Below are positions 1 through 34,748 of a stretch of 64,000 nucleotides of DNA, piece by piece (position 1 is the first letter of the stretch; the number at the start of each line of letters is the position of its first letter). The notes beneath the pieces were generated by a model. The model was not told where the DNA came from. It did not search any database and saw only the letters and a list, made by a program, of their open reading frames with translations. The stretch is from Candidatus Omnitrophota bacterium (GTDB lineage Bacteria > Omnitrophota > Gorgyraeia > Gygaellales > Profunditerraquicolaceae). Location of the stretch: assembly GCA_028712175.1 (NCBI GenBank), contig JAQTQQ010000001.1:96992-160991 (forward strand), written 5' to 3'. A program made the position numbers and the translations under genes.

Positions 1-1
1 G

Positions 2-8358: not shown

Positions 8359-8360
8359 TT

Positions 8361-9158: not shown

Positions 9159-9161
9159 ATC

Positions 9162-13431: not shown

Positions 13432-13454
13432 TAGAGGTAGAGGGAAATTTTAAG

Positions 13455-16025: not shown

Positions 16026-16059
16026 TTGATATTAGAGACCCGTACTGTATAATAACTCT

Positions 16060-17626: not shown

Positions 17627-18763
17627 ATGTTTTTTATTCTTATTATACTGATTTTTATCCGACCGCTTATTTCTTCGCTGGCATTTGCCTACCTAAATCT
17701 TCTTTATTCCGGAGGATTGTTAGTTTTTCTATTAGCATACGTTATTTATAAAAAACTGTCCTTTGTAATAATAAAAAACCTAATATTTCCCGCAGCCTTA
17801 TTCGTTACAACATTATTGATATCGTTGATTTTTTCTCAAAATCACGCCAATAGTTTATCCTGTTTTTATATGTATATAAGCGGGCTGCTTTTGTTTTTGG
17901 CAGCCGCTTCTTTGTCCGAAGAAGAGCAGCTATTTACTGTCCAGGCGATTACCCTTTGCGGCTTAGTTATCAGCCTTTTAGCAATATATCAATATTTATT
18001 TGGATTCAGCCATCTTGCGGCCTATCTCTCAAATGGCAATATTTCATTTCCCTTTGCTTTAGGTTACATAGAAAGCAGGAGGGTTTTCTTTCCTTTTCTT
18101 ATGCCCAGTATACTTGGCGGATACCTTGCGACAATACTGCCGCTGTTTTTTATTAATAAAAACCGTATTTGGCTTGTCCTTCCGCTATGCTTGGCTCTAA
18201 TTCTTACTAAATCTATCGGGGCATTCCTGAGTTTATTTCTCGCACTAATGGTTTATTTCTATCTGCAGGGCAGGTTTAAGAAAAGAAATATTATCTGCCT
18301 TTTAGTCATATTAATATTTTTGGCGGGCATCTTAATTTTACGCTCTATGACAGGAAGAGACAACACGCAGCCTATTTTTTCCGCAGTAATGAGATTTAGT
18401 TATTGGAGGGATACCTTGGAGCTTATTAAAACCCATCCCTGGGTAGGCGTAGGGCTGGGAAATTTTGATTTAAGGGCCAGCCGCTATGCACATAATTCTT
18501 ATCTGCAAATTTGGGCTGAAATGGGAATATTCGGTTTGCTTGCTTTTGCCTGGCTTGTGTATGCCGCGATGAAGACCGGGTTGCGTAATTTAAAACAATC
18601 GCTTAACAGGATTAAATATTTGGCGCTGTTTGCAGCGAGCCTTGTGTTTTTAACGCATAATTTTGTGGATTTTACTTTTTTTCTGCCTGAGGTATCCTTT
18701 GTTTGGTGGGTGATTTTAGGGTTAATCGTTTCAAGAGACAGCAATAAATTAGGGCAGAAGTAA
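17627..18763 (+). CDS. O-antigen ligase / O-antigen polymerase family membrane protein (Wzy_C domain)
   Basis: Polytopic protein with the Wzy_C-like loop 'RASRYAHNSYLQIWAEMGIFGL'. Confidence 0.6.
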   Translation: MFFILIILIFIRPLISSLAFAYLNLLYSGGLLVFLLAYVIYKKLSFVIIKNLIFPAALFVTTLLISLIFSQNHANSLSCFYMYISGLLLFLAAASLSEEEQLFTVQAITLCGLVISLLAIYQYLFGFSHLAAYLSNGNISFPFALGYIESRRVFFPFLMPSILGGYLATILPLFFINKNRIWLVLPLCLALILTKSIGAFLSLFLALMVYFYLQGRFKKRNIICLLVILIFLAGILILRSMTGRDNTQPIFSAVMRFSYWRDTLELIKTHPWVGVGLGNFDLRASRYAHNSYLQIWAEMGIFGLLAFAWLVYAAMKTGLRNLKQSLNRIKYLALFAASLVFLTHNFVDFTFFLPEVSFVWWVILGLIVSRDSNKLGQK

Positions 18764-18832
18764 AGGATTTCTTTAGCCGCATAAGTATGATAAAATTATC
18801 CAAGATTTATTCTTAATGAGCCCATTGAAATA

Positions 18833-19984
18833 ATGCCCAGAATTAACATCCTTTACCTCATTACTAAATTGGAATTAGGGGGTGCCCAAAAGCAATTATT
18901 AAGCTTAATTGCCAATTTAGATAGAGACAGGTTCAATATTTTTTTATTTACCGCCAAAGACGGATTATTGATTGAAGAGGCTTTAAGAATAAAGGGACCA
19001 GTTTTAAAAAGATCAAAATTTCTCTGCGGACCGGTTAATTTTCTGAAAGACATTCTCGTTTTCTTTGAAATTTACGGTTTCATTAAAAAAAACAGAATCC
19101 TCATAGTCCATACTCACAGTTCTAAAGCAGGAATTGTTGGTCGTTTTGCCGCTAAAGCAGCTAATGCGGCGGTCATTATTCATACTGTTCATGGCTGGAG
19201 CTTTCATGATTATCAGCCAAGGATGGTTAAAAATTTTTATATATTCTTAGAAAAGATTTGTGCTAAGTTTAGCAATAAAATAATTGTTGTCTCAAAGCAC
19301 GATAAGGAGAAGGGGTTAAAGAACCTGGTTGGATCAGAAGGCCAGTACATTATAATCAGGTATGGAATAAATATTAAAGAATTCAAGCCCGATATTGGGC
19401 GCATTTCAGCCAGACGGGCTTTAGGGCTGAATGAAACCGACCTTGTGGCGGGAACGGTTGCTTGTTTTAAGCCTCAAAAATCACCTTTAGACTTTATTAA
19501 TATAGCGGCTGGTATTAAAAAAGATTTACCGAATATTAAATTTATCATGGTAGGGGATGGGCTGTTGCATAAGGATGCGTTGCTCCTTTTAAAAAAGCTT
19601 AATTTGGAAAGGGAGTTTATTTTAACCGGCTGGCGCCATGATGTAGCCTCGATTTTGTCAGCTTTAGATGTTTTTGTTTTGACTTCATTGTGGGAAGGTT
19701 TACCGATAGCAGTTTTGGAGGCTATGGCCGCAAGGATCCCGGTGGTTGCCACTGATACTGGAGGGATAAGAGAGGTTATCGAAAACGGCAGAACGGGTTA
19801 TTTGGTTGCACCGGCCGATAAGCCCGCCTTGCAAAACCGGATAAAAGAATTGCTTAGCAATAAAGCCAGACGGGATGAATTTATAAAGCTGGCGGAAAAA
19901 AGGGTCAATGCCGAAGAATTTTTGATAAGTAAGATGGCCAAAGATACTCAAGAATTATACCTTAATTTAAGTGGAGGGGCTTAA
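18833..19984 (+). CDS. GT4 family glycosyltransferase
   Basis: GT-B retaining-transferase C-terminal motif 'EGLPIAVLEAMAARIPVVATDTGG'. Confidence 0.75.
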   Translation: MPRINILYLITKLELGGAQKQLLSLIANLDRDRFNIFLFTAKDGLLIEEALRIKGPVLKRSKFLCGPVNFLKDILVFFEIYGFIKKNRILIVHTHSSKAGIVGRFAAKAANAAVIIHTVHGWSFHDYQPRMVKNFYIFLEKICAKFSNKIIVVSKHDKEKGLKNLVGSEGQYIIIRYGINIKEFKPDIGRISARRALGLNETDLVAGTVACFKPQKSPLDFINIAAGIKKDLPNIKFIMVGDGLLHKDALLLLKKLNLEREFILTGWRHDVASILSALDVFVLTSLWEGLPIAVLEAMAARIPVVATDTGGIREVIENGRTGYLVAPADKPALQNRIKELLSNKARRDEFIKLAEKRVNAEEFLISKMAKDTQELYLNLSGGA

Positions 19985-19986
19985 AC

Positions 19987-20970
19987 ATGCTTAAATATGG
20001 AATTGTTTTTACCGCCGCTTTGATCTTTGGCATAGTTTTTACATTCTTATTGGCAAGGTATTCTTTAAAACATAAGATACTTAAAATCGAGTCTATTCCG
20101 TCGGTCGGAGGTTTGGGAATAGGTATGGCTTTTATTTTTTCTTTAGGTTTAGGCATATATGTATTCAATCTGGCTACAGCCAAGATGTTGGCGATAGCAG
20201 GCGCAGGCCTGCTTATGTTGGCCCTGGGGGTAATCGATGATTTAAAAGAATTATCGGTAGCGCAGAAATTCTTTGTGCAATCATGCTGCGCGGTTTTATT
20301 GATCATCTCCGGGGTAAGGACGGAAATTATGTATTTTGGTTTTTGGCCGAATGCCGTAATTACTTTCTTCTGGATATTGGGCATAACTAATGCATTTAAC
20401 CTGCTTGATATTATGGATGGTTTGGCCGCGGGGGTATCTCTTATTATAAGCAGCGCATTCCTATGGATAGGTTTATTTAACGCAGACCTGCAGGTGCAGG
20501 TTTTAAGCCTTATTCTCTGTGCTCTTAGCGCAGGTTTCCTCATTTTTAATATGCCACCGGCAAAGGTATATTTAGGTAATTCAGGCAGCCATTTTCTTGG
20601 CTTACTCATTGCTTCGCTTGCTTTGATTACGCATTATGCATCCAGTAGTAATGTATTTGCCCTGTTTAGCCCAATAATGATTGTCGGCCTGCCGGTAATG
20701 GATACAATATTGCTTATAATCTTCAGGATGATTAAAAATAAGCCCCCCTTTAATAAGAGCAGGGATCATCTTGCTTTAAAAATCGGAGCCTTGGGTTTTT
20801 CGCCGGTTAAGACAATTTTGATTATGTATTTATTAGGGGCTATTTTTGCTTCATGTGGGATTATTTTGACCCGGGTAAATAATATCTTTGGTGCAGTTAT
20901 CACCACCTCAATTTTTTTATTAAGCATAGGCATATTCTTTAGACTTGTAAAGATAGAGACAAATGGCTAA
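19987..20970 (+). CDS. polyprenyl-phosphate sugar-1-phosphate transferase (MraY/WecA family)
   Basis: 'NAFNLLDIMDGLAAG' DDxxD-type motif in an 11-TM protein. Confidence 0.8.
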   Translation: MLKYGIVFTAALIFGIVFTFLLARYSLKHKILKIESIPSVGGLGIGMAFIFSLGLGIYVFNLATAKMLAIAGAGLLMLALGVIDDLKELSVAQKFFVQSCCAVLLIISGVRTEIMYFGFWPNAVITFFWILGITNAFNLLDIMDGLAAGVSLIISSAFLWIGLFNADLQVQVLSLILCALSAGFLIFNMPPAKVYLGNSGSHFLGLLIASLALITHYASSSNVFALFSPIMIVGLPVMDTILLIIFRMIKNKPPFNKSRDHLALKIGALGFSPVKTILIMYLLGAIFASCGIILTRVNNIFGAVITTSIFLLSIGIFFRLVKIETNG

Positions 20971-22255
20971 GAAAATTATTATTTTAGGGGCCGGGCTCGC
21001 CGGCTTAAGCGCCGCCTGGCACCTTAAAAAGAAAGGGATACAAGCGACTGTCTTTGAGAAAGAAGCCATTGTCGGGGGGTTGTGCCGGACTAAGAAGGTC
21101 AATGGCTTTGTTTTTGATTATGACGGCCACCTTTTGCATTTTCAAAACAATTATGCATTGAAGTTGTCAAAGAGATTATTGAAAGGTAATTTGATCCGGC
21201 ATGAAAGAAAAGCATGGGTCAGCAATTTCGGTATTTTTAGCCGCTATCCGTTTCAGGCTAATCTTAACGCTTTACCTAAGCCGGTGGCCGAAGAGTGCTT
21301 GTGGGGTTTTGTGCGGGTATGTAATGCTAAACCCGCTATGCCCGGAGAGAATTTTCTAAAGTGGATAAATGCCACGTTCGGCCTGGGCATAGCCAAACAT
21401 TTTATGGTCCCTTATAATGAAAAATTCTGGGCAGTCCCTTTAAACCAGATGGTTTGTTCTCTGTGGGTCGAGAAATTTATTCCCCGGGTATATCTCTCTG
21501 ATATAGTTAATGGATTCCTTGAGGGCAGCTGCGATCATTTTGGTTATAATGCCTTTTTTTGGTATCCTAAAAAGGGCGGGATAATGCAGCTGCCATTGGC
21601 TTTTGAAGAAAGCATAGGAAAAATCTTTAAAAACAGCCGTATCAACCGCATAGACCTTGAAAAGAAAGAGATAACCATAAACGGGAAAGATAAAGAAAAA
21701 TACGATTCCTTAATTTTAACAATACCTTTGCCTGAATTGATTAAAATAGCCCGGCCTTTACCGCATAAAATACTGGCCTGCCTTAATAAGCTGCAATGGA
21801 ATTCTATTTATAACTTGAACCTTGGCGTAGAAGGAACCTGTCAGCCTGACAAGCACTGGGTATATTTCCCGCACAAGGAAACTGTTTTCTTTAGGGCAGG
21901 ATTCTTTCATAATTTTTCCCATGACCTTGCGCCAAAAGGGAAGAGCTCTTTATATGCGGAAGTTTCGTATTCAAGAAATAAGCCGATTAATAGAAAGAAT
22001 ATCGTAAAACATGTTTTAAGGGATTTGTATAAACTCGGAGTCATCACAAAGAAAAATAAAATATTAGTGACAGATGAAAATGACATAAAATACGGTTATC
22101 CGGTTTATAATCGTAATTATATAAGGGCAACCAGCGTAATTAAGGATTTTTTGTATTCTAACGGCGTGATTACCTGCGGCCGTTATGGTTCATGGAAATA
22201 TATGTCGATGGAAGACTCTATTCTTGATGGCAAAGAAGCAGCGGAGGTTTTTTAA
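20963..22255 (+). CDS. FAD-dependent oxidoreductase (amine-oxidase / UDP-galactopyranose-mutase-like fold)
   Basis: N-terminal dinucleotide-binding 'IIILGAGLAGLSAAWHL' plus 'GGLCRT'. 430 aa. Confidence 0.5.
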   Translation: MAKKIIILGAGLAGLSAAWHLKKKGIQATVFEKEAIVGGLCRTKKVNGFVFDYDGHLLHFQNNYALKLSKRLLKGNLIRHERKAWVSNFGIFSRYPFQANLNALPKPVAEECLWGFVRVCNAKPAMPGENFLKWINATFGLGIAKHFMVPYNEKFWAVPLNQMVCSLWVEKFIPRVYLSDIVNGFLEGSCDHFGYNAFFWYPKKGGIMQLPLAFEESIGKIFKNSRINRIDLEKKEITINGKDKEKYDSLILTIPLPELIKIARPLPHKILACLNKLQWNSIYNLNLGVEGTCQPDKHWVYFPHKETVFFRAGFFHNFSHDLAPKGKSSLYAEVSYSRNKPINRKNIVKHVLRDLYKLGVITKKNKILVTDENDIKYGYPVYNRNYIRATSVIKDFLYSNGVITCGRYGSWKYMSMEDSILDGKEAAEVF

Positions 22256-22259
22256 GGAG

Positions 22260-23036
22260 ATGCTTAAAAGAATAAAGAATATCTATTATTTTCGCCACAT
22301 CCTTTTTGATATGGCTATCAATCAATTAAAAGCTAAGTATGCCGGTTCGCGTTTTGGCATCTGGTGGGCGGTAATCGTCCCGTTGTTGCTTGCTTTAAGC
22401 ATAAATTTTGTCTTTCAGGTAATTTCTAAAATAGCAATACCGAATTACGCTTTTTTTGTATTATCCGGAATTATGCCGTGGCTTTTCTTTACCGGTGCCC
22501 TGACCGAGGTGAACAATTCATTTATAGCCAGCGCTTCCATATTAAAACAGAGTAGGTGCCCGCATGAATTTATACCACTTTCCCTTATTTTGGCCAACCT
22601 GCTTAATTTCTTAATCGGATTTATTTTTATCTTACCGCTGTTTATGGTGATTAAGCCGGCGATTTTGCTCGTGGTTGCTTATTTGTTTCTAATTATACTG
22701 CTTGAGACTTTTTTTATAATCGGATTAGGGTTAATTTTTGCGACCCTTAATGTATTTTTCAGGGATCTCTCTCATTTTCTATCTATCGGTTTTACCGTCT
22801 GGTTCTGGATTACTCCAATCTTTTATTCTTTGGATATGATCGATTTATCTTACCGTTGGGTTTGCTTTTTAAACCCGATGTCATACTTTGTTTCTTCCTA
22901 TCAAAGTATTTTATTCGAGGCAAAAGCCCCACTGCCTGCGGCTTTATGGGCTATGTTTGTTATTGCGGCCGTTTCTTGCCTGGCCGGGTATTTAATTTTT
23001 ATTAAAAATGAGCCGGAACTACTGAAAAGAATATGA
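22260..23036 (+). CDS. ABC-2 type polysaccharide export permease (Wzm/TagG-like)
   Basis: The ORF-track start (22185) overlaps the upstream gene, so I placed the start at the internal Met 22260 (the alternative is 22227). The protein has 6 TM segments, N-terminal 'RHILFDMAINQLKAKYAGSRFGIWWA', and is coupled to the Wzt-like ATPase. Confidence 0.65.
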   Translation: MLKRIKNIYYFRHILFDMAINQLKAKYAGSRFGIWWAVIVPLLLALSINFVFQVISKIAIPNYAFFVLSGIMPWLFFTGALTEVNNSFIASASILKQSRCPHEFIPLSLILANLLNFLIGFIFILPLFMVIKPAILLVVAYLFLIILLETFFIIGLGLIFATLNVFFRDLSHFLSIGFTVWFWITPIFYSLDMIDLSYRWVCFLNPMSYFVSSYQSILFEAKAPLPAALWAMFVIAAVSCLAGYLIFIKNEPELLKRI

Positions 23037-25765
23037 TCGCAATAAAATTCGACAATGTCTGGGAGAAATACCGGATTAAATTCATAAACGCAGGCAAGGT
23101 ATCATGGGAAGAGTTTTGGGCTTTAGAAGATATAAGTTTTCAGGTTGAAAGCGGGCAAGTGCTCGGGATAGTCGGCCAAAACGGGGCAGGTAAAAGCACT
23201 GTCCTAAAATTAATTGCCGGCATGCTTATCCCCGATAAGGGAAAGGTTTCTTTGACCGGCAAGGTTTCTACCCTTATGGAGCTGGGAGCAGGTTTTAATC
23301 CGGAATTGACCGGAAGAGAAAACGTTATTGTTAATTCAAAGATTTACGGATTGGATGAGAAATTACTGGATAGCCGGCTGCCCGAAATTGTAGAATTTGC
23401 CGGGTTAGGCAGGTTTATCGACGCTCCTATAAAATATTATTCGCAAGGGATGTATATGAGGCTGGCATTTGCTTTAGCCATATATGTCGAGCCGGACATC
23501 CTTCTTATTGACGATATCCTCGCCGTTGGGGATGAAGAGGCAAGGTTGCGTTGCTTAAAAAAGATATTCACCCTGAAAGAGAAAGGTAAAACCATAATTT
23601 TGGTGAGCCATGATATGGATATGATAAGAAAAATTTGCGACAGGGTCATTTTCTTAAAAAATGGAAAAGTTATCAATATAGGGGAGCCGGATAATATAAT
23701 TCCTTGTTATCTGGATAGTTTAGGAGATGCTAAAGGAATAGCATCCTTGAATAAAGGCCCGTTGCGCATGGCGTTTAATAATGGCAAGCTATCTTTTAGT
23801 TACGGCAATATTATGCTTACAAGGGGTATAAGTATTTATATGGCTGCCCTGTTAGCAGATTCTGGGCTTTGGCTCCCTTCGTTTAATCTTGAATGGGTTG
23901 TAAGAAATATGTCCGAAGATGCCCTGATTGTAGAGGGGAGAAATAAAGAAATTAATATTTCTCAATTATGGAGTTTTGATATTGGCGAAGATAATCTCCG
24001 TTGTCAGGTTAAGGTGGGCGGAAATGTTAAATCATTGCGTACAGACTTATTTTTAATCCAGGATTACATCGGCTGGTCGGATCTGTCCCGGCAGGAAAAT
24101 TTTGGCTCCTTTAATCATAAGTCAAGCTGGCAGGAGGTGCATACTAATAATGCAGAGCTTGGCCTTATAGGGCTGAGGCCTGCCGAGGATAAAACTAGTC
24201 TGCCGTTTTTATTATTTGAATTTGGAGAAAACGGCCGTTTTTTTAAGCTTTTTAATACCGGTTATGAGCAGGAGGCACGGGTTATCCAAGTCCCCTTGGC
24301 AGCGGATACTTATTCCATGACGATTAATTTTTTTCCGCAAGAAGATGGATTTAGGGCATCTCTTAATCGGATTAAAGCCCAGCTGGCTTTGACTCATCAG
24401 GCAGAAGCAGAGCGCCTTCAATTAGGGCAGACAATATCTTCGGGGCGTTTACGCATTTTTTGTGATCTTGGGGGGAAAACCATCAGGATTTATTTTAAAG
24501 ACAAAGAGATAACTTACGGTAACGGTCTACATGCGGTGTTTGATACCGCAGAAGGGCAATTTATTTTTAAAAATAGCCAATGGCAGGTAGATAAAATATC
24601 CGATAATGAAATGATCCTAAATTTAAATTGTCACATTTTATCGCTCTCTCAGGTTTGGTTGTTGCGGTGCAATAACGAGAATTCATTAAATATACAGGTA
24701 AAGGTAAGAAGCGATAAAGAAATTTTTTTGAGAGAACAGTTTTTGAAATTGGAGCTGGAGGATAAATATGAAAGCTGGCGGACTCCTTATGAAGAGGGGG
24801 TATTTTTAATTGAAAGGTATATTGATGGTATTGCGCCGATAAGGTTGAAAGATAGCAAAACTTGTCAGGTTATTTTGAGCCCTTCGGGAAACATTTTACC
24901 CAAATTATCCTTTAAATCATCCGGGCATAAAGATGACGGCATTTTGAGCCTTTATAAAAGTAAATCCGTCAAAGATATCTCGGTTAACCTTAATTTTTCC
25001 AGAATTATTCCTAACGGCCAAATTTCTTTGCCTGCCGGTGATTATCTTTATTTTGAAGGCGAAATTTTATTGAATAAGGATATTGTTGAGGCAGAAAAGA
25101 ATATTTTGTCAGAGCAGGTTAAAGTAAAAAGTAAAGAGCTGAAGCTGGTTTTCGACCGGGGCAGGGGCAGGATTTTTTGGGCCCAAAAAGAGCTGACCAG
25201 GGGCTTAAGCCTTTATACAAGCCTGCGCCATTCGGGGATTTGGTATGATTCTTATCAGGCCTTATGGAGTATAAATAAATCGGAAGATAGGTATTTTGAG
25301 GTTTACGGAGCCTGGCCATATATTCCGGTTTCGCAGCTTTGGCAGGTTTATATAGAAGATAATGTATTGCATTGGAAAGTGCAGTTAGATGTCCACCAGC
25401 CGGTTAATCTGGAAATAATGCAGGCAAATTTGATGCTTTCCTGCGAATACAAAAACTGGCAGGTAGCTGCCGGGCAATCCCCGAATATTTTTCCGGAAGA
25501 GTATACTCAAGATTATGATATTTTGCCTTTTCGTCTCTGGTATGGCAAGCCGGCAGAAGCCGGGCTTATCTTGATTGGTAACGGCGTGCCGCAGGTTAAA
25601 TTTTTATCGCAGACATCCGATGAGGCAATTAGGGGAATTATCGAGAACACTGACTACCTCTATCATGCCCGGCTCATGCAATATCAAAAAACCGGCACCA
25701 GTAAATTACCCGCAGGGTCGTATCCTTACTTTGACGGCATAATAAAAATCGGCAATGATAAATAA
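23033..25765 (+). CDS. Wzt/TagH-like ABC transporter ATP-binding protein with ~680-aa C-terminal extension of three repeated ~100-aa domains
   Basis: Walker A 'GQNGAGKST', signature 'YSQGMYMRLAF', Walker B 'ILLIDD' and H-loop 'VSHD'. The C-terminal extension holds three copies of a motif (.. LT.G.GL .. W..S .. Q.W ..) that also occurs at the N-terminus of the next protein. Confidence 0.75.
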   Translation: MIAIKFDNVWEKYRIKFINAGKVSWEEFWALEDISFQVESGQVLGIVGQNGAGKSTVLKLIAGMLIPDKGKVSLTGKVSTLMELGAGFNPELTGRENVIVNSKIYGLDEKLLDSRLPEIVEFAGLGRFIDAPIKYYSQGMYMRLAFALAIYVEPDILLIDDILAVGDEEARLRCLKKIFTLKEKGKTIILVSHDMDMIRKICDRVIFLKNGKVINIGEPDNIIPCYLDSLGDAKGIASLNKGPLRMAFNNGKLSFSYGNIMLTRGISIYMAALLADSGLWLPSFNLEWVVRNMSEDALIVEGRNKEINISQLWSFDIGEDNLRCQVKVGGNVKSLRTDLFLIQDYIGWSDLSRQENFGSFNHKSSWQEVHTNNAELGLIGLRPAEDKTSLPFLLFEFGENGRFFKLFNTGYEQEARVIQVPLAADTYSMTINFFPQEDGFRASLNRIKAQLALTHQAEAERLQLGQTISSGRLRIFCDLGGKTIRIYFKDKEITYGNGLHAVFDTAEGQFIFKNSQWQVDKISDNEMILNLNCHILSLSQVWLLRCNNENSLNIQVKVRSDKEIFLREQFLKLELEDKYESWRTPYEEGVFLIERYIDGIAPIRLKDSKTCQVILSPSGNILPKLSFKSSGHKDDGILSLYKSKSVKDISVNLNFSRIIPNGQISLPAGDYLYFEGEILLNKDIVEAEKNILSEQVKVKSKELKLVFDRGRGRIFWAQKELTRGLSLYTSLRHSGIWYDSYQALWSINKSEDRYFEVYGAWPYIPVSQLWQVYIEDNVLHWKVQLDVHQPVNLEIMQANLMLSCEYKNWQVAAGQSPNIFPEEYTQDYDILPFRLWYGKPAEAGLILIGNGVPQVKFLSQTSDEAIRGIIENTDYLYHARLMQYQKTGTSKLPAGSYPYFDGIIKIGNDK

Positions 25766-28700
25766 TTATTATAAATTTAAAGAACACCTGAGACGTAAAG
25801 GGCTGCTTTATGCCTTTTTAAGAGGGCTGAAATATTTTATTTTTCTCTTAAGGAGCTCTTGTAGAAAAAACAAAGTAAATTTTAATTTTATCGCCAAAGG
25901 CAAAACCAGTATTATCTGTACGGCGTCAGGTCTTAAGATTTTCTGGGGAAATAAGGAATTAACTTCCGGTATTGGGCTGCATTCGCTAGTAAATACTCTG
26001 GGCCTGTGGACGGATTCCGTTACAGCCAGCTGGCAGATTATCGAAAGAGGGCCCGATTATTTTATTCTCAAGGTTGTTTTTAAGGCTCTGCCCTTAAACC
26101 AGATCTGGAAGATTAAAATTGAAAAGCAGGAAAGGATATCGCTGGATATAGCTCTTGAGGTTGAAGAGGAATTAAATATTGATGAACTGCGCGTTATGGG
26201 TTTGGTTAGTAATAAATATAAAAGCTGGTTCTGTGATTATAAGCAGGGGGATTTTAGCCGCCTGGATGATAAATTTTCTGATGTATATTTTGGGAATTCT
26301 CCGGCCAGGCTAATCGGGGTAAGGTTTCCTTTAGGAGAACCGGGCTTTTTAAATGCTTTTAGTTTTGACTGTGACGATAAGGATTGGTTTGCCGTAATCC
26401 AAAATCCACCCTCATTTACTGACGCCCGCCTAGTCGGCGTAAGGAGAGTATATCCCGGAGAAAATATCCTGCGCCCGGGTATCTGCTATCAGATAATATC
26501 ATCCGGCCTTGATTTGTCCAAAGATGGCCAAGACTTGGATATTAAGGTAGAAAGCATAAGGCGAACTTCTTTGGCGCCTATCCTCGGCACGGAGCTTGAC
26601 AATCAAAAAAGAAAAACCAGGATTTTGCTCGTCAATTTACCCTGGCAGAAGAATGGTGTTTCAGGCGTGCGCGCAGGATCGCGCTGGCCGCACATAAAAG
26701 GCCGGCCCGAAGATAGCTATTTGCCATTTCCCTTCTTTTTAGCCTACGCTACCGCTTTATTACGTAGCCGGGATATTGAAGCAGTGATGATTGATGCTAT
26801 AGCAGAAGGCCTAAGTGAAGAAAAATTCCTGGAAATAGTTTTATCAACTAAGTTTGATTATCTGGTAACTGAAACATCGGTTCCGTCTTTTAATGATGAT
26901 CTGTGCCTCCTAGAGAAAATAGCTAAAGCAGGGGCTAATATAATTTTATGCGGTCCGAATTACGAAATATATAAACCGGAGTTTTTAAAAAACCATACTT
27001 TTATCCAATTTGTTTTATACGGTGAGTATGAATTTACGCTATTAGAGCTGGTTGAGTCATTAAGGGATAAAAAAACCCTTTCTTCGGTGGCCGGGTTGAT
27101 TTACAGAGACAATGGCTCGGTTCAGGTTAACTCAAAAAGAGAACCGTTTCCGTTGGATCTTTTGCCTTGGCCTTATAGGGAAGGCCTGCCTATGGATAAA
27201 TATCTGGATGCCCCCGGTCGAATGCCTTTGCCTAGCGTTCAGATGATCGCTTCCCGGGGATGCCCTTTTAGGTGTAAATTTTGCCTCTGGCCGCAGGTTG
27301 TCTATCAAGGGCATGATTACCGCGTAAGGAGCGTACAAGACGTTGTTAGCGAAATGCAATATTTGGTTGAGGAAAAAGGTTTTAGATCCGTCTATTTTGA
27401 TGATGATACCTTTAATATAGGTAAACAACGGATGCTGGATTTTTGCCGTCAGATTAAAGAGCGTAAATTAAATAAAGTGAAATGGGCAATAATGGCCCGG
27501 CCCGACCTTATGGATGAAGAAATACTGCAGAATATGAAGGATGCCGGTTTGTGGGCTGTTAAATATGGCGTCGAGTCAGCCGTGCAAAGTTTATTGGATA
27601 ATATAGATAAAGATATGGATTTAGAAAAAGCAAAAAGAATGATTGAGTTTTCTAAAAAAATCGGTCTTAAGGTCCATCTTACTTTTACTTTCGGCCTTCC
27701 GCAGGAAACAATGGAAACCATTCAGGAAACAATAGATTATGTTAAAAAGGCTGATCCATATTCGGCCCAGTTTTCTATCACAACACCGTTTCCCGGGACA
27801 GAATACTATAAATCCTTAGACGGCCGGGGGATGATCCTTTCTAAAGATTTCTCCGATTACGACGGCCAATTTAAAAGCGTAATTAAATTAGAGAATTTAA
27901 GCGCTGCGGAGTTAGAAAAGGGCAAAGATAAGGCAACGCAGGCCTGGCAGGATCATTTAAGGAGAAAGGACTTATGGCGCAATAACCTGATAAAGCTTTA
28001 TTCTTTGGCAAAAGAAAAAGGCTTATCTTATGCGCTAGGTAAAGGTTTGAGGTATTTTAGAAACTTTCTGTTTCCTTATCCTGCTACTGACAAAGATTGC
28101 CTGCATCCGATGAGCTATGATGATCTGATCAAGAAAGTAAACTTTGGTTTTACGGATATACTTCTTATACAGTGTCCGCCATGGGATATCTCAATGCCGC
28201 CTTTAGGGGTTGCCTACCTGTCCAGTTATTTAAAAGAACACGGATACAATGCTTCTGTATTTGACCTGAACATAGCTTTGTATAATTTAGCAGGCGATAA
28301 CGCAAAGCGGCTCTGGGAGCAAAAGAATTATGACAAGTGGATGAATACCGATTCTCTGGAAAACGCAAATAACCGGCTAAAAGACGAGGCGGGTATCCTG
28401 CTTACCAAATTATTAGCCAAAGCGGATATCGAATATATCGGCCTTTCCGTAAATCTAGCCGGAATCAGTATGGCCGCGGGGCTTATTAAGATAATAAAAT
28501 TGCAGAAACCCAGCTCTAAGATAATTCTGGGTGGATGGGGGTGTATTAATGAACACATGCGCGGCCTTTTCCCCGCCGGATTAGTCGATGTTTTTGTCGT
28601 GGGTGAAGGCGAAGCTACGCTGTTAGAGGTAATTGAAGTATTTAGGGGCCTCAAAAAAGAGAGCGATGTCCGCGGAGCAATATTTAATCACAGAATTTTA

Positions 28701-29540
28701 GCTGATTATTCTCCCCGGGAGCCAATCATGGATTTAAATGTTATCCCCTGGCCGACTTTTAAGGAATTTAATCTGCACTGTTACGGATCCAGGAGCCTGC
28801 CGATTTTTACAAGCAGGGGATGTATTGGCAGGTGTAGTTTTTGCAACGACTGGCCGAATTCTACGCCTTACCGAAGCCGCAGTGCGCGTTCTATAATGGA
28901 TGAAATTATTTATCATATAAAGAATAACCATACAAAAACATTTAGTTTTAAAGATTTGTTATGTAACGGCGATATTGGTAACCTTAATAAATTAGCCGAT
29001 TTAATTATCGCCTCGGGGATAAAAATTAACTGGGATTCTCAGGCAATCCCCCGCAAAGAAATGACCTATGAGCTACTCTTAAAATTAAAGCAATCAGGCT
29101 GCAGCACTTTGATATATGGCATAGAAAGTTTTTCCGATAATGTCCTAAAACTTATGCGCAAGATATTTACTTCTTCTGTTGCCGAAGACGTGCTTAAGGA
29201 TACCTGGAGGGCGGGGATCAAAAGCTGTATTAATATCATTGTGGGTTTTCCGGGCGAGACAGATGAAGATTTTCAAAGCACATTAAAGGCGATAAAAGAA
29301 AACAGGCAGTATATCGGACAAATTGGGGCAATTAGCGTATGCCTGGTTAACCACAACAGTGATTTAGAGAATAATCATCAGCGTTACAACCTGATCCTGC
29401 CAGGCGATACCAGGATCAGGGCGAAGGAGTGGAGGAGCAGCGACAATTTGAGCACCTATCAGTTAAGGCGGCAAAGGGCTGAACGGATTTTGTCCATGGC
29501 CAATGAAATCGGACTGAAATATGAAACTTTAACCATATAA
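25755..29540 (+). CDS. tandem double B12-binding radical SAM protein (1261 aa) with N-terminal Wzt-C-like domain
   Basis: There are two units. Unit 1 has B12-domain 'RILLVNLPWQ...' and radical-SAM Cys triad 'RGCPFRCKFC'. Unit 2 has 'ILLIQCPPWD...' and 'RGCIGRCSFC'. Both units begin with the related leader 'HLRRK.L......L....KGL.YA...GL.YF'. Confidence 0.75.
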   Translation: MINNYYKFKEHLRRKGLLYAFLRGLKYFIFLLRSSCRKNKVNFNFIAKGKTSIICTASGLKIFWGNKELTSGIGLHSLVNTLGLWTDSVTASWQIIERGPDYFILKVVFKALPLNQIWKIKIEKQERISLDIALEVEEELNIDELRVMGLVSNKYKSWFCDYKQGDFSRLDDKFSDVYFGNSPARLIGVRFPLGEPGFLNAFSFDCDDKDWFAVIQNPPSFTDARLVGVRRVYPGENILRPGICYQIISSGLDLSKDGQDLDIKVESIRRTSLAPILGTELDNQKRKTRILLVNLPWQKNGVSGVRAGSRWPHIKGRPEDSYLPFPFFLAYATALLRSRDIEAVMIDAIAEGLSEEKFLEIVLSTKFDYLVTETSVPSFNDDLCLLEKIAKAGANIILCGPNYEIYKPEFLKNHTFIQFVLYGEYEFTLLELVESLRDKKTLSSVAGLIYRDNGSVQVNSKREPFPLDLLPWPYREGLPMDKYLDAPGRMPLPSVQMIASRGCPFRCKFCLWPQVVYQGHDYRVRSVQDVVSEMQYLVEEKGFRSVYFDDDTFNIGKQRMLDFCRQIKERKLNKVKWAIMARPDLMDEEILQNMKDAGLWAVKYGVESAVQSLLDNIDKDMDLEKAKRMIEFSKKIGLKVHLTFTFGLPQETMETIQETIDYVKKADPYSAQFSITTPFPGTEYYKSLDGRGMILSKDFSDYDGQFKSVIKLENLSAAELEKGKDKATQAWQDHLRRKDLWRNNLIKLYSLAKEKGLSYALGKGLRYFRNFLFPYPATDKDCLHPMSYDDLIKKVNFGFTDILLIQCPPWDISMPPLGVAYLSSYLKEHGYNASVFDLNIALYNLAGDNAKRLWEQKNYDKWMNTDSLENANNRLKDEAGILLTKLLAKADIEYIGLSVNLAGISMAAGLIKIIKLQKPSSKIILGGWGCINEHMRGLFPAGLVDVFVVGEGEATLLEVIEVFRGLKKESDVRGAIFNHRILADYSPREPIMDLNVIPWPTFKEFNLHCYGSRSLPIFTSRGCIGRCSFCNDWPNSTPYRSRSARSIMDEIIYHIKNNHTKTFSFKDLLCNGDIGNLNKLADLIIASGIKINWDSQAIPRKEMTYELLLKLKQSGCSTLIYGIESFSDNVLKLMRKIFTSSVAEDVLKDTWRAGIKSCINIIVGFPGETDEDFQSTLKAIKENRQYIGQIGAISVCLVNHNSDLENNHQRYNLILPGDTRIRAKEWRSSDNLSTYQLRRQRAERILSMANEIGLKYETLTI

Positions 29541-29550
29541 ATTCATTACA

Positions 29551-30747
29551 ATGCCTAATATCGGTCCAGACGATTATTTGTTAAAGGATATTAAAAACGG
29601 TTTCCGTGCCTCTATGGGGCCGCAGATTGTTCAATTTGATATTACCAACAAGTGTAATAATAATTGTTTATGCTGCTGGAATAGGTCTCCTTTATTAGGG
29701 GAGCTTTCTATGGAGAGAAAAAAAGAAAATAACGAGGAGCTTAAATTTGAAGTCATAAGAAAGACATTGGAAGAATTGCGTCAGATGGGGACGAAAACTA
29801 TTTTTCTGGCAGGCGGAGGAGAGCCTTTTGCGCATCCGGACATTTTGAAAGTATTAAGGTGTATTAAAGAAAACAACATGCGCACTTTTATTAATACCAA
29901 CTTTACTCTCATAAACAAGGAAATAGCAAACCAGATAACCAAACTAAAGATCGACCATATTCACGTAAGCCTTCTGGCCGGTACAGCCAAGACTTATGCG
30001 GGGATTCATCCCAACAAAACAGAAGAAACGTTCCATCAAATTGTAAATTTACTGAAGTATATTTCTTCGCTCAAAGAGCAATCCGGACAGCATCTTTATA
30101 ATCCCTTGCCTCATATTAATTTATATTATGTAATCTTCAGTAAAAATTATAAAGAGATAGATAAAATGATTGATGTGGCTATAGAAACTAAGGCCGATAG
30201 TGTTGAATTTACGCCTGTCGATGTCATCCCGGGTTACACCGATTCACTGTTATTGGGCAAAAAAGAGTCAGAGCATGCTTTAAACATGCTGGATAAGCAG
30301 TCTTTAAGAATAGAGCAGTATAATATTCACGAGCCGGTTAAGATCAGTATTACCCAAAAGGAAAGTTTTATAAAAAGGATCAGTTCGCAAGAAGCCTTGT
30401 TGGGGAAATACGAATCGGATAAAGTTATAAATCAGCCTTGTTATGTGGGGTGGGTATTTGCCAGGATTAAGGCGGATGGCAGCGTGAACCCCTGTTTAAA
30501 AGCCCACAGGATATCCATCGGGAATATCCACGAAAAATCTTTTAAGGAAATCTGGAATAGCACTGAGGAACAACTATTTAGGGAAAAGGCGTTTACACAC
30601 AACCCAAATGACCCATATTTCAATTTAATCGGTAACGACGCTAATATAAATTTTGGATGTATTAAAAGCTGCGATAATATTCAGATTAATCAGGAGATGC
30701 ACGCTAAATACGCCGGATTATTGCAAAAAGATGACAATTCCGCTTAA
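29551..30747 (+). CDS. radical SAM/SPASM(twitch)-domain protein, paralog 1
   Basis: 'NKCNNNCLCCW' CxxxCxxC, 'GGGEPF', and C-terminal aux-cluster cysteines 'PCYVGWVFARIKADGSVNPC' and 'GCIKSCDN'. Confidence 0.75.
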   Translation: MPNIGPDDYLLKDIKNGFRASMGPQIVQFDITNKCNNNCLCCWNRSPLLGELSMERKKENNEELKFEVIRKTLEELRQMGTKTIFLAGGGEPFAHPDILKVLRCIKENNMRTFINTNFTLINKEIANQITKLKIDHIHVSLLAGTAKTYAGIHPNKTEETFHQIVNLLKYISSLKEQSGQHLYNPLPHINLYYVIFSKNYKEIDKMIDVAIETKADSVEFTPVDVIPGYTDSLLLGKKESEHALNMLDKQSLRIEQYNIHEPVKISITQKESFIKRISSQEALLGKYESDKVINQPCYVGWVFARIKADGSVNPCLKAHRISIGNIHEKSFKEIWNSTEEQLFREKAFTHNPNDPYFNLIGNDANINFGCIKSCDNIQINQEMHAKYAGLLQKDDNSA

Positions 30748-31933
30748 AAAAGATAAAACTGCGCTTAATAAATTGCTGATCGACGGAGTTTTGTCTTCCA
30801 AATCAGCCTTTATCGGCCCGGAAGTATTGCATATTGATTTAACTAATCAGTGCAATTTTAACTGTATTGCCTGCTGGTGCCGGTCTCCTCTGTTAACCGA
30901 CAAAGCCATGCCGGATTGGGAAAAAAAATTAACCTTACCTCTTGATATCATAAAAGGGGTTATTGACGATTTAGAACAAATAGGGGGGCTTAGGCAGGTT
31001 AAATTAGTGGGCGGAGGAGAGCCTTTTATGCATCCTAACGTATTAGAGATAGTCGAATATATAAAAAGCAAAGATAAAGAAATTGAAATAGATATAAATA
31101 CTAATTTTAGCCTTGTTGATAAAGAAACCGCAGAGAAATTATTGCATATAGGGGTGGATTCTTTGACTATAAGTATCTGGGCCGGGAGCGCTCCGGTTTA
31201 TGCATCGGTGCACCCCAATCAGAAAGAAGAAACTTTCTATAGGATTAAAGATATTATGCGGTTTATATATGAAAGAAAGAAAGCAAAAGGGCTGTCTGCC
31301 CCAAGAATTATAATTCATGATGTGATTTTCAATTTGAATTATAAAGATTTAGAAAATATGATTGAATTCGCTTTAGATGCAGGAGCTGATTCTGTCCAGG
31401 TTGTCCCTGTGGATCCTGTAAAAGACAGGACCGAGAGCCTATTGTTAAGCGGCACACAAAGAAAAGAGCTTCTTGAGATTATTAACAGGATTAACAGGTA
31501 TTATGACCCAAAGACATTCCGTTATATTACTCAGGATAAAAGGTCTGTAGTTTTATGCGATTTTAACAGTTTTATACGCCGCGTTGAGAGGCTCAATATT
31601 GCAAGCGGAGTGTATGATGAGCAGGTTGTTGAAGAAATTCCATGTTATGTAGGCTGGTTATTTGCGAGAATTATGGCTACGGGAAATGTTGTTCCTTGTT
31701 GTAAGGGCCATAGGATGACTATGGGCAATATCTATAAAAACAGATTTAAGGAGATTTGGCTTTCTCCCGTTTACGATGAATTCAGGAATAATGGTTTAAA
31801 GCTTTCTAAAAATCATCCTTATTTTTCCGTGATCGGCAATTCCGCTACGGCTAAGACAGGCTGCTATAATTGTGACAATCTTTGGCAGAATATGCCAATG
31901 CATAAACTGATGAATTTAAAGAAAATATCTTAA
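30731..31933 (+). CDS. radical SAM/SPASM-domain protein, paralog 2
   Basis: 'NQCNFNCIACW', 'GGGEPF', 'PCYVGWLFARIMATGNVVPCC', 'GCYNCDN'. The start is placed at the internal Met (30731) to minimise overlap. Confidence 0.7.
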   Translation: MTIPLKKDKTALNKLLIDGVLSSKSAFIGPEVLHIDLTNQCNFNCIACWCRSPLLTDKAMPDWEKKLTLPLDIIKGVIDDLEQIGGLRQVKLVGGGEPFMHPNVLEIVEYIKSKDKEIEIDINTNFSLVDKETAEKLLHIGVDSLTISIWAGSAPVYASVHPNQKEETFYRIKDIMRFIYERKKAKGLSAPRIIIHDVIFNLNYKDLENMIEFALDAGADSVQVVPVDPVKDRTESLLLSGTQRKELLEIINRINRYYDPKTFRYITQDKRSVVLCDFNSFIRRVERLNIASGVYDEQVVEEIPCYVGWLFARIMATGNVVPCCKGHRMTMGNIYKNRFKEIWLSPVYDEFRNNGLKLSKNHPYFSVIGNSATAKTGCYNCDNLWQNMPMHKLMNLKKIS

Positions 31934-31934
31934 T

Positions 31935-33086
31935 ATGATAAAAGGTTTGTTTTCTTTTAAAAAAGTTAAGGCTTGGGTTTTGAATTTAAAAGGCATATCC
32001 ACTAAGTGTTACGCTTATAAAGGCCCCGATTTGGTTCAGATCGATTGTACGGATAAGTGCAATAGCCGCTGCCTTGCCTGCTGGGTGCATTCTCCGTTAC
32101 TTAATAGTAAAGAAAATAAAGATTTTCTTGATATAGAGCCATCAATATTAAAACGTTTTATAAGGGAGGCTAAGAAATCCGGGACAAGGGAGGTTTGTTT
32201 CTCCGGAGGAGGGGAGCCGTTTTTATATGAACATATTTGGGAGATTTTAGAGTTTACGCAAAAAAACAGCATGCCTTTTCGTATAAATACAAACTTTACT
32301 TTATTAAGCAAAAGGGATATAAAAAGGCTGCTTTCTTATAATAAGCTGGCATCTTTGACGGTAAGCATTTGGGCTCCTGACGCCGGCTTGTATTCAGAAT
32401 TACACGGAAGAAATAAGGAATCTTTCGACAGCCTGATTTCTAACTTGCGGTTTCTTAATAAACTTAAAACCCCCAGATTAAATGTGATTGTTTATTCCGT
32501 GATGACCAGTATGAATTATTTTGCTTCAAAGGCTTTGACGAATTTAGCCAGGGAAACGGGTTGTAGCGGCATAGAGTTTGCGCTTATTGATGCTATACCC
32601 GCAAACACAGATTCACTGCTGCTTAATGAAAATCAGTTGAGTTACCTAAAAAGTGATTTTCTCGGATTAATCAGGCAGGCAGAAGATTTTGGCAAGGCAT
32701 TTAAAATAATTAACAAAGAATTATTTCTTAGAAGGTTGTCTTGCCCCGGGGCAAGCTGCGGAGAATATGATGCTTTTGTCGATAGGATACCCTGTTATTC
32801 AGGCTGGGTTTTTTTAAGGCTACGGGCAAACGGAGACCTGAACTCGTGCCTTAAATCTCATAAAATTCCCATCGGGAATATCTATAATGAAAGTTTTCTG
32901 TCTATCTGGAACAATGCATCGCAGCAGGAGTTTAGAAGGAAGTGTTTAGCCCTTCCGAAAGATAAAGAATATTTCAAAGTTTTTGGCAACGGAAATTCCG
33001 CAGGTATCGGTTGCAGGCGCTCATGTGATAATATATTTAGCAATGAGCATGCCGGAAGATTGGTCAAGTATTTAATTAAGTTATGA
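31935..33086 (+). CDS. radical SAM/SPASM-domain protein, paralog 3
   Basis: 'DKCNSRCLACW', 'GGGEPF', 'PCYSGWVFLRLRANGDLNSC', 'GCRRSCDN'. Confidence 0.75.
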   Translation: MIKGLFSFKKVKAWVLNLKGISTKCYAYKGPDLVQIDCTDKCNSRCLACWVHSPLLNSKENKDFLDIEPSILKRFIREAKKSGTREVCFSGGGEPFLYEHIWEILEFTQKNSMPFRINTNFTLLSKRDIKRLLSYNKLASLTVSIWAPDAGLYSELHGRNKESFDSLISNLRFLNKLKTPRLNVIVYSVMTSMNYFASKALTNLARETGCSGIEFALIDAIPANTDSLLLNENQLSYLKSDFLGLIRQAEDFGKAFKIINKELFLRRLSCPGASCGEYDAFVDRIPCYSGWVFLRLRANGDLNSCLKSHKIPIGNIYNESFLSIWNNASQQEFRRKCLALPKDKEYFKVFGNGNSAGIGCRRSCDNIFSNEHAGRLVKYLIKL

Positions 33087-33205: not shown

Positions 33206-34705
33206 TTGAATATATTATTAATGCATCCTCATGATTTATATTCTTCCTCCGAGCCTTGGACGGTGCGCATAAAAAATATAGCTTGCCAGTTTGAAGCCAA
33301 AGGGCATTCGCTGAAGTTGGTTTATTTCCCTCTTGATAAACGGGATATCGGACACAGTTTTTTAAGCGATAATATTGAACTTATTGCTTTAGACAGAAGG
33401 TTAGGCATATTCAGGCTGTTTAGAAATATCCTGTCCGTGATGAGGCTATCCGCTTCATGCGATATAATACATTTTCAGAAATGTTATTATTATGTAGCGC
33501 TTCCGGCGCTGATTGCCGCATGGATTAAAAACAAACCGGTGCATTACGATTGGGACGATTGGGAGACAAAGATATTTTATTATTCAAATCCTTCCCAATT
33601 TCTTGTTGGCGGGTTTATCAATTTGTTCGAGAAATTAGTCCCCATGGCGGTAGATACAGTATCTGTTTCTAGCGGTTATCTTCGCCAAATCTGCCTTTTA
33701 AGGGGCGTGCTTAATAAAAATATCTTTTCTGCGCCGGTAGGCGCAAACTTGGAAGAGTTTTTTCCGGATCCGGATTCTAAGGGCAAGGTAAAGGGAAAAT
33801 ATGGAATAAATGGCCAGCTTGTTTTGTACGTAGGCCAGCTTCATGGCGGTCAATATGCCGAACTTTTTATAGCCGCAGCAGCAGATATTCTTAAAGAAAA
33901 TAAGCGGGATATATATTTTATGATTGTTGGCGACGGCTACCGGTTGAATGAATTAAAGCGCATAGCTTCGGATATGGGGCTGGGACCTCGTTTTATTTTT
34001 TCCGGGTTCATCCCTCATGAAAAGGTGCCTTCTTATATTAACGATGCCGATATCTGTGTGGCTTGTTTTGAAGACAATGCTATAACCAGGTGTAAAAGCC
34101 CTTTAAAAATCGCTGAATATTTAGCCTGTGCTAAAGCTATAGTTGCCAGCAATGTGGGAGAGGTCCGGAATATGGCAGGCGGGGTGGGAGTATTAACTGA
34201 ACCCGGTAATGTTTCTTCATTATCCGAGGGGATAAAGAGCTTATTGGATAACAAGGCGTTAAGGGATAGATTAGGCCATTATGCCCGCTTGAGGGCTGAA
34301 AGAAAATATAATTGGTTGGTTACGGCAGATAATATCCTGAGCGCATATACAGAAGCAATTAGGGTAAACGGAGATTGCAGCGGTTCTATCCAGCTTAATG
34401 GGAGGGGGAATATGGCGTATCCAGAGAAAACAGAGCATGGTTTTGATATTCTTACGGCAAGGGTTTTTTCGATAACCAGCCATGCGCCTGCCCCTTATAC
34501 TATTGAGGTTGAGCTTAGAAAACTTATCGGAGAGCGGCCAGACTCTTTAACGGTAGACCCGCGCTGCACTTTTTATAAGGACGATAAAGTCCCTAAAACA
34601 ATTAATATCGTTCAGCCCAAGGATATAATTGAAGTGACATATTTAGTTCATAATGGCATTAAAGTAGCTTTTAACATTATCGTCAGGCCGCCAAAGCCTT
34701 TCTGA
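33206..34705 (+). CDS. GT4 family glycosyltransferase with ~120-aa C-terminal extension
   Basis: TTG start with GGAGGA RBS 8 nt upstream (alternatively the ATG 27 nt later). GT-B motif 'SPLKIAEYLACAKAIVASNVGE'. Confidence 0.7.
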   Translation: MNILLMHPHDLYSSSEPWTVRIKNIACQFEAKGHSLKLVYFPLDKRDIGHSFLSDNIELIALDRRLGIFRLFRNILSVMRLSASCDIIHFQKCYYYVALPALIAAWIKNKPVHYDWDDWETKIFYYSNPSQFLVGGFINLFEKLVPMAVDTVSVSSGYLRQICLLRGVLNKNIFSAPVGANLEEFFPDPDSKGKVKGKYGINGQLVLYVGQLHGGQYAELFIAAAADILKENKRDIYFMIVGDGYRLNELKRIASDMGLGPRFIFSGFIPHEKVPSYINDADICVACFEDNAITRCKSPLKIAEYLACAKAIVASNVGEVRNMAGGVGVLTEPGNVSSLSEGIKSLLDNKALRDRLGHYARLRAERKYNWLVTADNILSAYTEAIRVNGDCSGSIQLNGRGNMAYPEKTEHGFDILTARVFSITSHAPAPYTIEVELRKLIGERPDSLTVDPRCTFYKDDKVPKTINIVQPKDIIEVTYLVHNGIKVAFNIIVRPPKPF

Positions 34706-34748
34706 CCCCGTCAGCTTTAAGTAAAAAGCGTTTCAAATTTGATTTAAG

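Follow-up and report, generated by a model that had tools for sequence, protein, structure and literature searches.

A domain family common to Wzt-type polysaccharide exporters and radical-SAM enzymes of Omnitrophota, with a possible role in glycan binding

A 64,000-nucleotide stretch of DNA from a Candidatus Omnitrophota bacterium (contig JAQTQQ010000001.1, positions 96,992 to 160,991; hereafter the window) encodes Wzt, the ATPase of a Wzt-type polysaccharide exporter of the ATP-binding cassette (ABC) family, which adjoins its partner Wzm inside a glycan-assembly cluster. The next gene encodes a large protein with two radical S-adenosylmethionine (radical-SAM) modules. Why should an exporter and the enzyme encoded beside it carry the same domain? 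This question was raised by an earlier note on the locus, which described a repeat present three times on the tail of Wzt and once on the radical-SAM protein. We call this domain D. The reading that we favour, with a probability of about 0.5, is that D is a non-catalytic glycan-binding module, which would tether the exporter and the tailoring enzymes to one lipid-linked polymer. The observations behind it are the homology of the D copies, their predicted fold class, the range of architectures in which they are found, their gene linkage and the flexible tethering of D to the enzyme; from these we infer that D binds carbohydrate, and that the exporter and the enzymes share one substrate through it.

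Homology, fold and family identity of the shared domain

Pfam recognizes solely the nucleotide-binding domain of Wzt (residues 31–161) and, in the double radical-SAM protein, solely two Radical_SAM stretches and B12-binding/Radical_SAM_N2 regions. Wzt residues ~238–910 and residues 1–300 of the radical-SAM protein have no Pfam match. Pairwise BLASTP with composition-based statistics nevertheless aligns these parts with each other: residues 46–229 of the enzyme with Wzt 239–420 (E = 4e-10), 46–186 with Wzt 468–605 (E = 1e-14) and 61–158 with Wzt 713–809 (E = 1e-16). Within Wzt, copy 3 matches copy 1 (2e-11) and copy 2 (1e-11, over 219 columns), and the weakest pair is copy 1 with copy 2 (1e-3). 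Comparison by hhalign of profiles built for each positional class (see below), the check that the earlier note had called for, gives probabilities of 99.5–100% and E-values of 1e-22 to 1e-47 over 165–212 columns (2e-40 for class c-mid against class c-last). A hidden Markov model (HMM) of the domain, run against all six-frame open reading frames (ORFs) of the window, matches only Wzt and the radical-SAM protein, all other ORFs having E > 1; the motif is therefore neither generic nor of low complexity. The four segments are thus homologous, as the earlier note had claimed; neither of the outcomes that it named as refuting this was obtained, and the strings that it quoted are found where it placed them. 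Its estimate of ~100 residues for the repeat was too short: since the alignments extend up to 219 columns, the unit comprises ~215–225 residues (Table 1), and the ~100 residues correspond to the better-conserved N-terminal halves.

Could the similarity be due to chance or composition, as in a generic repeat pattern? The sole point in favour of this idea is the low pairwise identity of the D segments (24–31%). It is refuted by the pairwise alignments (E down to 1e-16), by the profile–profile comparisons (E down to 1e-47) and by the database search, in which 584 proteins match at E <= 1e-10; the copies also have a confidently predicted common fold. We consider its probability to be negligible.

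D is predicted to be an all-beta domain with a galactose-mutarotase-like beta-supersandwich, a fold that is, according to fold comparison, typical of carbohydrate-binding and carbohydrate-processing proteins. This fold class presumably carries the InterPro label "glycoside hydrolase-type carbohydrate-binding". Its members include the aldose 1-epimerases, accessory domains of the glycoside hydrolase families GH2, GH15, GH36, GH38 and GH97 and of polysaccharide lyases, OpgG/OpgD and the P1 domain of YidC. D has 5–12% identity with these domains and no match at the sequence level. The model of residues 1–780 of the radical-SAM protein (predicted local distance difference test, pLDDT, 88; predicted template modelling score, pTM, 0.63) has low-confidence linkers at residues 34–42 and 278–285, and supports D being a discretely folded unit on flexible linkers. 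In this model, the layout of the protein is that of beads on a string: two N-terminal helices, D, a helix and the catalytic module.

The fold of D makes it necessary to consider that D could itself be an enzyme acting on the polymer, either a mutarotase or epimerase, a hydrolase or a lyase. The residues conserved across the family are, in the numbering of the enzyme, T70, G74, W85, S88, W93, Q116, W118, Y155, W158 and F167. This set contains neither an acidic residue (Asp or Glu) nor His, which argues against catalysis by D, and no family-wide column corresponds to the catalytic His and Glu of the aldose 1-epimerases. Moreover, D is shorter than the mutarotases (~215 residues, compared to ~290–340), its sequence identity is 7–12%, and tandem arrays of 2–8 divergent copies are untypical of catalysts. 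A catalytic D is therefore very unlikely.

The earlier note had also supposed that D is related to the carbohydrate-binding domain of the E. coli O9a-type Wzt, and had anticipated a beta-sandwich like that of a carbohydrate-binding module (CBM). The second idea was right in spirit, the predicted fold being all-beta and of the type found in carbohydrate proteins, but the fold and the family are not those that the analogy implied. Indeed, no Pfam family matches 52 D copies consistently, the family of the O9a domain, Wzt_C (PF14524), matches neither Wzt nor any of the 52 copies at E <= 1, and a profile of the 52 sequences has no hit at E <= 10 among the sequences of the PDB. The best PDB match of Wzt is the Wzt of A. 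aeolicus (8dku/7k2t, E = 1e-63), aligned solely over residues 14–242 and not over the carbohydrate-binding domain of the A. aeolicus protein; the nucleotide-binding domain, most similar to exporters of O-antigen and teichoic acid, also matches TarH/TagH (E = 1e-47 to 1e-53). With no Pfam match, no PDB match and an alignment to the A. aeolicus protein that stops at residue 242, D is not a relative of the known Wzt cap-binding domain. Wzt_C is a jelly roll of ~150 residues which dimerizes by C-terminal strand exchange, features that D does not have; D is a predicted supersandwich of ~215 residues. A weak match to the septin CDC3, obtained with a four-sequence profile (E = 0.003), was spurious and disappeared with the 52-sequence profile.

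D copies which occupy the same position in different Wzt proteins are mutual closest relatives. The first copies of three-copy and four-copy Wzt proteins cluster together, another cluster unites the middle copy of three-copy proteins and copy 3 of four-copy proteins, the last copies form one cluster, and copy 2 of four-copy proteins forms a further class. The copies on the enzymes are a class of their own, with a within-class distance of 0.57 and a mean distance of 0.845–0.908 to every Wzt class; of the 35 positions of their signature, 11–15 are common to each Wzt class. The distances and the positional grouping imply that the D copies are old and non-equivalent, and that no Wzt copy gave rise to the enzyme's copy by recent duplication. 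By the same measures, none of the Wzt copies is a twin of the D of the enzyme. Orthologues of the enzyme are 39% identical to the window copy in D and 61% in the catalytic core.

Carriers of the domain and its linkage to radical-SAM genes

When 1.84 billion representative proteins were searched exhaustively with HMMER, 679 carriers of D were found at E <= 1e-3, and architectures were read from the 150 best of them. Most are Wzt proteins with 2–8 D copies. P0068 and P0190 are fusions of Wzt, D and a SPASM radical-SAM enzyme, and a fusion of Wzt, five D copies and a radical-SAM enzyme also occurs. Other carriers consist of two to four D copies with a SPASM radical-SAM enzyme (P0090, P0159, P0170 and P0174), or of a B12-radical-SAM module, D, a SPASM radical-SAM module and a second D (P0144). 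Eight are GT-C (PMT_2) membrane glycosyltransferases with 2–4 C-terminal D copies. P0184 and P0195 are stand-alone proteins of ~490 residues, in which a hydrophobic, signal-anchor-like N-terminus precedes two D copies; from its sequence, this architecture suggests that D also works outside the cytoplasm. The domain is thus not restricted to Wzt proteins and the enzyme of the window, a point that the earlier note had left to a search. A word-indexed search with the enzyme's D alone returned a single fragment, P0001, which reflects the sensitivity limit of the index, not the rarity of the domain.

A search with residues 1–780 of the radical-SAM protein found 563 proteins at E <= 1e-20, and 118 of the 120 best radical-SAM homologues have exactly one N-terminal D. 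One homologue, P0235 (1236 residues), has Pfam hits to PF14528 and PF14890, which we take to be LAGLIDADG/intein-type families; if so, its sequence would suggest that an intein is inserted in the enzyme.

Every match with a named source comes from Candidatus Omnitrophica/Omnitrophota, and Omnitrophota-type genomes are the only ones in which D has been observed to date. Proteins identical to the Wzt and the radical-SAM protein of the window are recorded from a Candidatus Omnitrophica metagenome-assembled genome. The wzt/D-radical-SAM pair is also present in L014, L015, L017, L020, L023, L025, L026 and L030, whose records are titled uncultured Planctomycetia/Planctomycetales or Mariniplasma sp. 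(unverified labels). Either these records are mislabelled or the family ranges wider.

The two genes are closely linked. In the window, the start codon of the radical-SAM gene lies 11 nucleotides inside the end of wzt, on the same (+) strand. Conservation was counted from the Wzt side in ten independent loci (the window, L001, L003, L005, L006, L007, L008, L010, L011 and L012). The radical-SAM gene directly after wzt carries D in seven of them, and in eight of the ten a D-bearing radical-SAM enzyme is either beside wzt or, in L010, fused to Wzt itself. The enzyme after wzt bears two D copies in L008 and L012, and L003 and L008 encode an additional radical-SAM enzyme with a C-terminal D copy. 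The converse count, made from the enzyme's D, covered 18 loci of GTDB species genomes. In 16 of them, an ORF with several D copies (3–6 where it is complete) was found directly upstream of the enzyme, usually overlapping its start, and it has a Wzt nucleotide-binding domain wherever its own start falls within the locus. Of the two exceptions, one has no upstream DNA and the other has a different radical-SAM gene upstream. The sharing of one domain family by Wzt and the adjacent enzyme, proposed for this locus, is therefore conserved across many genomes. There is no obvious relation between the number of D copies on Wzt and the number of radical-SAM genes in the cluster.

In the divergent subgroup formed by L005 and L011, the gene after wzt encodes a fusion of a GT2 glycosyltransferase and a radical-SAM enzyme (12719..14608 and 12716..14596, respectively). 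Six or more radical-SAM genes follow, none of them with D within 10 kb. The radical-SAM modules of the window are also arranged in other ways elsewhere: module B is a separate gene in L001, where the protein is split into 787-residue and 487-residue products (13419..17232), and also in L006, in which the D-bearing B12-radical-SAM module is fused to a SPASM module; the three SPASM radical-SAM genes of the window correspond to one fusion of 1284 residues in L003 (15815..19669).

Regarding the enzyme itself, a CxxxCxxC radical-SAM core follows a Rossmann/B12-binding-like domain, and the best Pfam B12-binding stretch of the double radical-SAM protein falls in module B. In structure, module A is most similar to AprD4, a cobalamin-independent diol dehydratase. 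The best curated family match is HpnJ, with 330 bits, a score below every curated cut-off; HpnJ is not a methylase (PMC9204698). Radical-SAM enzymes of the AprD4, HpnJ and GenK type resemble the enzyme of the window in having an N-terminal B12-binding-like domain, and act on sugars (PMC9204698); a sugar is a plausible substrate for the D-bearing enzyme too. They differ from it in acting on small glycosides and in having no carbohydrate-binding-like module, whereas the substrate of the window enzyme is presumed to be a lipid-linked polysaccharide.

At the N-terminus of the D-radical-SAM orthologues, the motif NYxKFKxHLxxxGxxYAxxRGxKYxxFL is conserved (25764..25850 in the window, residues 4–32). 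It forms two predicted helices, of which the second has an amphipathic character. The window protein has a similar motif, GLSYALGKGLRYFRNFLF, at the junction of its two radical-SAM modules (~27987..28079, residues ~745–775). This type of helix motif may be a membrane-interface or docking helix.

Tethering, capping or docking

The glycan-assembly cluster is headed by a gene for a tetratricopeptide-repeat (TPR) protein, followed by those for a Wzy_C/O-antigen-ligase-like protein, a GT4 glycosyltransferase, a WecA-like transferase, a flavin adenine dinucleotide (FAD) amine-oxidase-like protein, Wzm, Wzt, the double radical-SAM protein, three SPASM radical-SAM enzymes, two GT1-type and two GT2-type glycosyltransferases. 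It would build a polyprenyl-phosphate-linked polysaccharide in the cytoplasm, with the WecA-like protein as initiator and the GT4, GT2 and GT1 enzymes as transferases; the battery of radical-SAM enzymes would tailor this polysaccharide, and Wzm/Wzt would export the tailored product. The single D on the flexible linkers of the first tailoring enzyme could keep the polymer near its sugar-modifying active site, and so raise the local concentration of the substrate. The three non-equivalent copies on Wzt, placed directly after the nucleotide-binding domain, in the position that the cap-binding domain has in classical Wzt proteins, could capture the same nascent lipid-linked polymer and load it into the channel. 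In related genomes, D would be put on other enzymes that act on the polymer.

Several observations weigh against this proposal. The beta-supersandwich is also found in proteins without known sugar binding, such as the P1 domain of YidC and the capsid protein of a chlorovirus. Since the D of the enzyme is roughly equidistant from all the Wzt copies, identical ligand specificity of the two cannot be deduced from their sequences. Last, the Wzt of L005 and that of L011 each have three D copies, and none of the enzymes encoded within 10 kb carries D.

The position of the first D copy also agrees with a different mechanism, a strict version of the earlier note's idea, in which the D-bearing enzyme puts a chain-terminating modification on the non-reducing end of the polymer and the D copies of Wzt recognize this cap, thereby gating export as in E. 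coli O9a, K. pneumoniae O12 and A. aeolicus. The classical carbohydrate-binding domain of Wzt is a jelly-roll dimer which recognizes terminal methyl, methyl-phosphate or 3-deoxy-D-manno-octulosonate (Kdo) caps, and cap-dependent export through such a Wzt-appended domain is established (PMC9445017, PMC11231755). D1 begins right after the hinge, at the site of the canonical cap-binding domain; the wzt and radical-SAM genes are tightly linked and often overlap, and the enzyme is fused to Wzt itself in L010. These data are compatible with capping. However, there is no homology between D and the known cap-binding domains, the fold is different, and a single cap would not need 2–8 copies per Wzt in distinct and old positional classes. 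The five or more radical-SAM modules per cluster and the D copies on GT-C enzymes point to tailoring that takes place along the chain or in several steps, and no coiled-coil ruler or terminator architecture was identified. The copy number and the presence of D on SPASM radical-SAM, GT-C and anchored proteins fit general binding of the polymer at least as well as the reading of a cap, and we regard the capping mechanism as rather unlikely.

The main alternative to glycan binding is that D does not touch the glycan at all, and that the D modules of the enzymes and their homologues on Wzt bind to each other, building a tailoring–export complex at the membrane. The classical Wzt cap-binding domains dimerize (PMC9445017), and glycan assembly in ABC-transporter pathways uses multiprotein complexes (PMC11231755). 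The gene overlap fits co-assembly, and the fusion of Wzt, five D copies and a radical-SAM enzyme indicates that proximity of the partners is tolerated or favoured. This idea is weakened by the D copies that lie on GT-C enzymes or behind signal-anchor-like N-termini, which, by analogy, would face the periplasm, away from Wzt (the topology is deduced). In addition, the fold is characteristic of carbohydrate-active proteins, and the three-copy Wzt proteins of L005 and L011 have no D-bearing partner nearby. The probability that D serves for docking is in our opinion low.

Glycan binding by D could also be part of a more elaborate system, in which a single family of glycan readers is installed on the radical-SAM writers, on the exporter and on post-export enzymes. 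Each positional D copy of Wzt would read a different feature of the polymer, and export would be licensed only once several radical-SAM modifications (e.g., C-methyl, deoxy or ring-rearranged sugars) are present. This would be a multi-mark checkpoint on a kind of polysaccharide chemistry of which no description was found in the literature searched, and the hypothesis is speculative and improbable in our view.

In the reading that we favour, D as a glycan-binding module can be compared with Wzt_C (PF14524), known from E. coli O9a, R. terrigena/K. pneumoniae O12 and A. aeolicus. Like Wzt_C, D directly follows the nucleotide-binding domain of Wzt, is all-beta according to its model, and belongs to an ABC-transporter-dependent glycan pathway; by analogy, it plausibly selects the polymer for export (PMC9445017, PMC11231755). 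Unlike Wzt_C, to which it has no sequence relationship, D is present in 2–8 tandem, non-equivalent copies instead of one, and its family extends to tailoring enzymes. As for the supersandwich domains, their presence on a cytoplasmic exporter ATPase and on radical-SAM enzymes is a context not described in the papers searched.

In the literature searched, there is a single precedent for an ABC-transporter-dependent pathway in which a chain-modifying enzyme bears a carbohydrate-binding module, namely the terminator ORF6 of K. pneumoniae O7. Its putative module is a predicted immunoglobulin-like CBM, a single example whose function was not pursued; no other terminator has such a module, and it was not reported to be homologous to the Wzt domain (PMC11231755). 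In the case of D, by contrast, a single domain family is found on both the enzyme and the exporter, and many genomes have kept this pairing. No precedent for radical-SAM enzymes linked to Wzm/Wzt or to ABC-transporter-dependent polysaccharides was found in the same literature.

The surrounding locus and the significance of the family

The features of the locus are collected in Table 1. The order of the GT4, WecA-like and FAD-oxidase genes is kept in most related loci, and L001 and L007 have conserved the three SPASM genes. The three SPASM enzymes and the FAD oxidase stay below the cut-off of every curated NCBIfam family. The second SPASM ORF is listed from a TTG codon and overlaps the preceding gene by 95 nucleotides; its true start is probably more downstream, the orthologue in L001 having 418 residues compared to 426 here.

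Table 1. Positions in the window of the exporter, the double radical-SAM protein, their domains and the neighbouring genes.
Feature	Position	Strand	Evidence or remark
Wzm, ABC-2 permease partner of Wzt	22185..23036	+	Pfam ABC2_membrane E = 4.8e-13; position kept in all related loci
Wzt (whole), 910-residue Wzt-type ABC ATPase	23033..25765	+	
Wzt nucleotide-binding domain and hinge, residues 1–237	23033..23743	+	Pfam ABC_tran E = 7.8e-22
D copy 1, Wzt residues 238–462, positional class c1	23744..24418	+	domain HMM E = 1e-87
D copy 2, Wzt residues 467–692, positional class c-mid	24431..25108	+	domain HMM E = 1e-100
D copy 3, Wzt residues 697–910, positional class c-last	25121..25762	+	domain HMM E = 2e-93
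Double radical-SAM protein (whole), 1261 residues, two radical-SAM modules	25755..29540	+	
Two-helix N-terminal segment of the radical-SAM protein, residues 1–36	25755..25862	+	predicted helices 2–15, 17–36
D copy on the radical-SAM enzyme, residues ~44–265, class R	25884..26549	+	
Radical-SAM module A (Rossmann/B12-like domain and radical-SAM core), residues ~289–745	26619..27989	+	
Radical-SAM module B (B12-binding domain and radical-SAM core), residues ~790–1261	28122..29540	+	Pfam B12-binding 888–959, second Radical_SAM stretch
Three SPASM-type radical-SAM genes	29551..30747, 30653..31933, 31935..33086	+	Pfam Radical_SAM and SPASM
Upstream glycan-assembly genes: Wzy_C/O-antigen-ligase-like, GT4, WecA-like polyprenyl-phosphate sugar-1-phosphate transferase, FAD amine-oxidase-like	17627..22255	+	Pfam, NCBIfam
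Downstream glycosyltransferases, two GT1-type and two GT2-type	33206..37622	+	Pfam

Further upstream of the cluster (6124..11048), the window contains trehalose genes, which encode a GT20 (OtsA-like) enzyme with an N-terminal extension of ~270 residues, a trehalose phosphatase, a DUF5752 protein and a TreT-like trehalose synthase. A single ORF of 530 residues (45822..47414) combines a secretin (PF00263) with a C-terminal TonB_C domain, an unusual combination; next comes a fusion of a ParA/MinD-like ATPase domain with a T2SSE secretion ATPase. In L003, a gene called with 45,887 residues extends into the locus (1..1966), ~8 kb upstream of the Wzm/Wzt cluster; its product belongs to the giant proteins of Omnitrophota that bioRxiv 10.64898/2026.06.07.730766 discusses.

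Substrate recognition by a Wzt-appended domain was already known. What is new here is the D family, absent from Pfam and the PDB, its predicted fold in an exporter/radical-SAM context, its multiplication into conserved positional classes and its occurrence on both the exporter and the tailoring enzymes.

A substrate-recognition domain on Wzt is a textbook mechanism of ABC-transporter-dependent glycan export and, to our knowledge, only one family of such domains, the jelly-roll Wzt_C, has been characterized. D is a second and unrelated domain family at the recognition position of Wzt, repeated up to eight-fold and shared with polymer-tailoring enzymes, and it merits a family definition of its own. 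If D binds glycan, it would represent a new family of glycan-binding modules, allow substrates to be assigned to a large set of orphan radical-SAM enzymes that would act on a polysaccharide, and help to find the polysaccharide that an uncultivated phylum makes.

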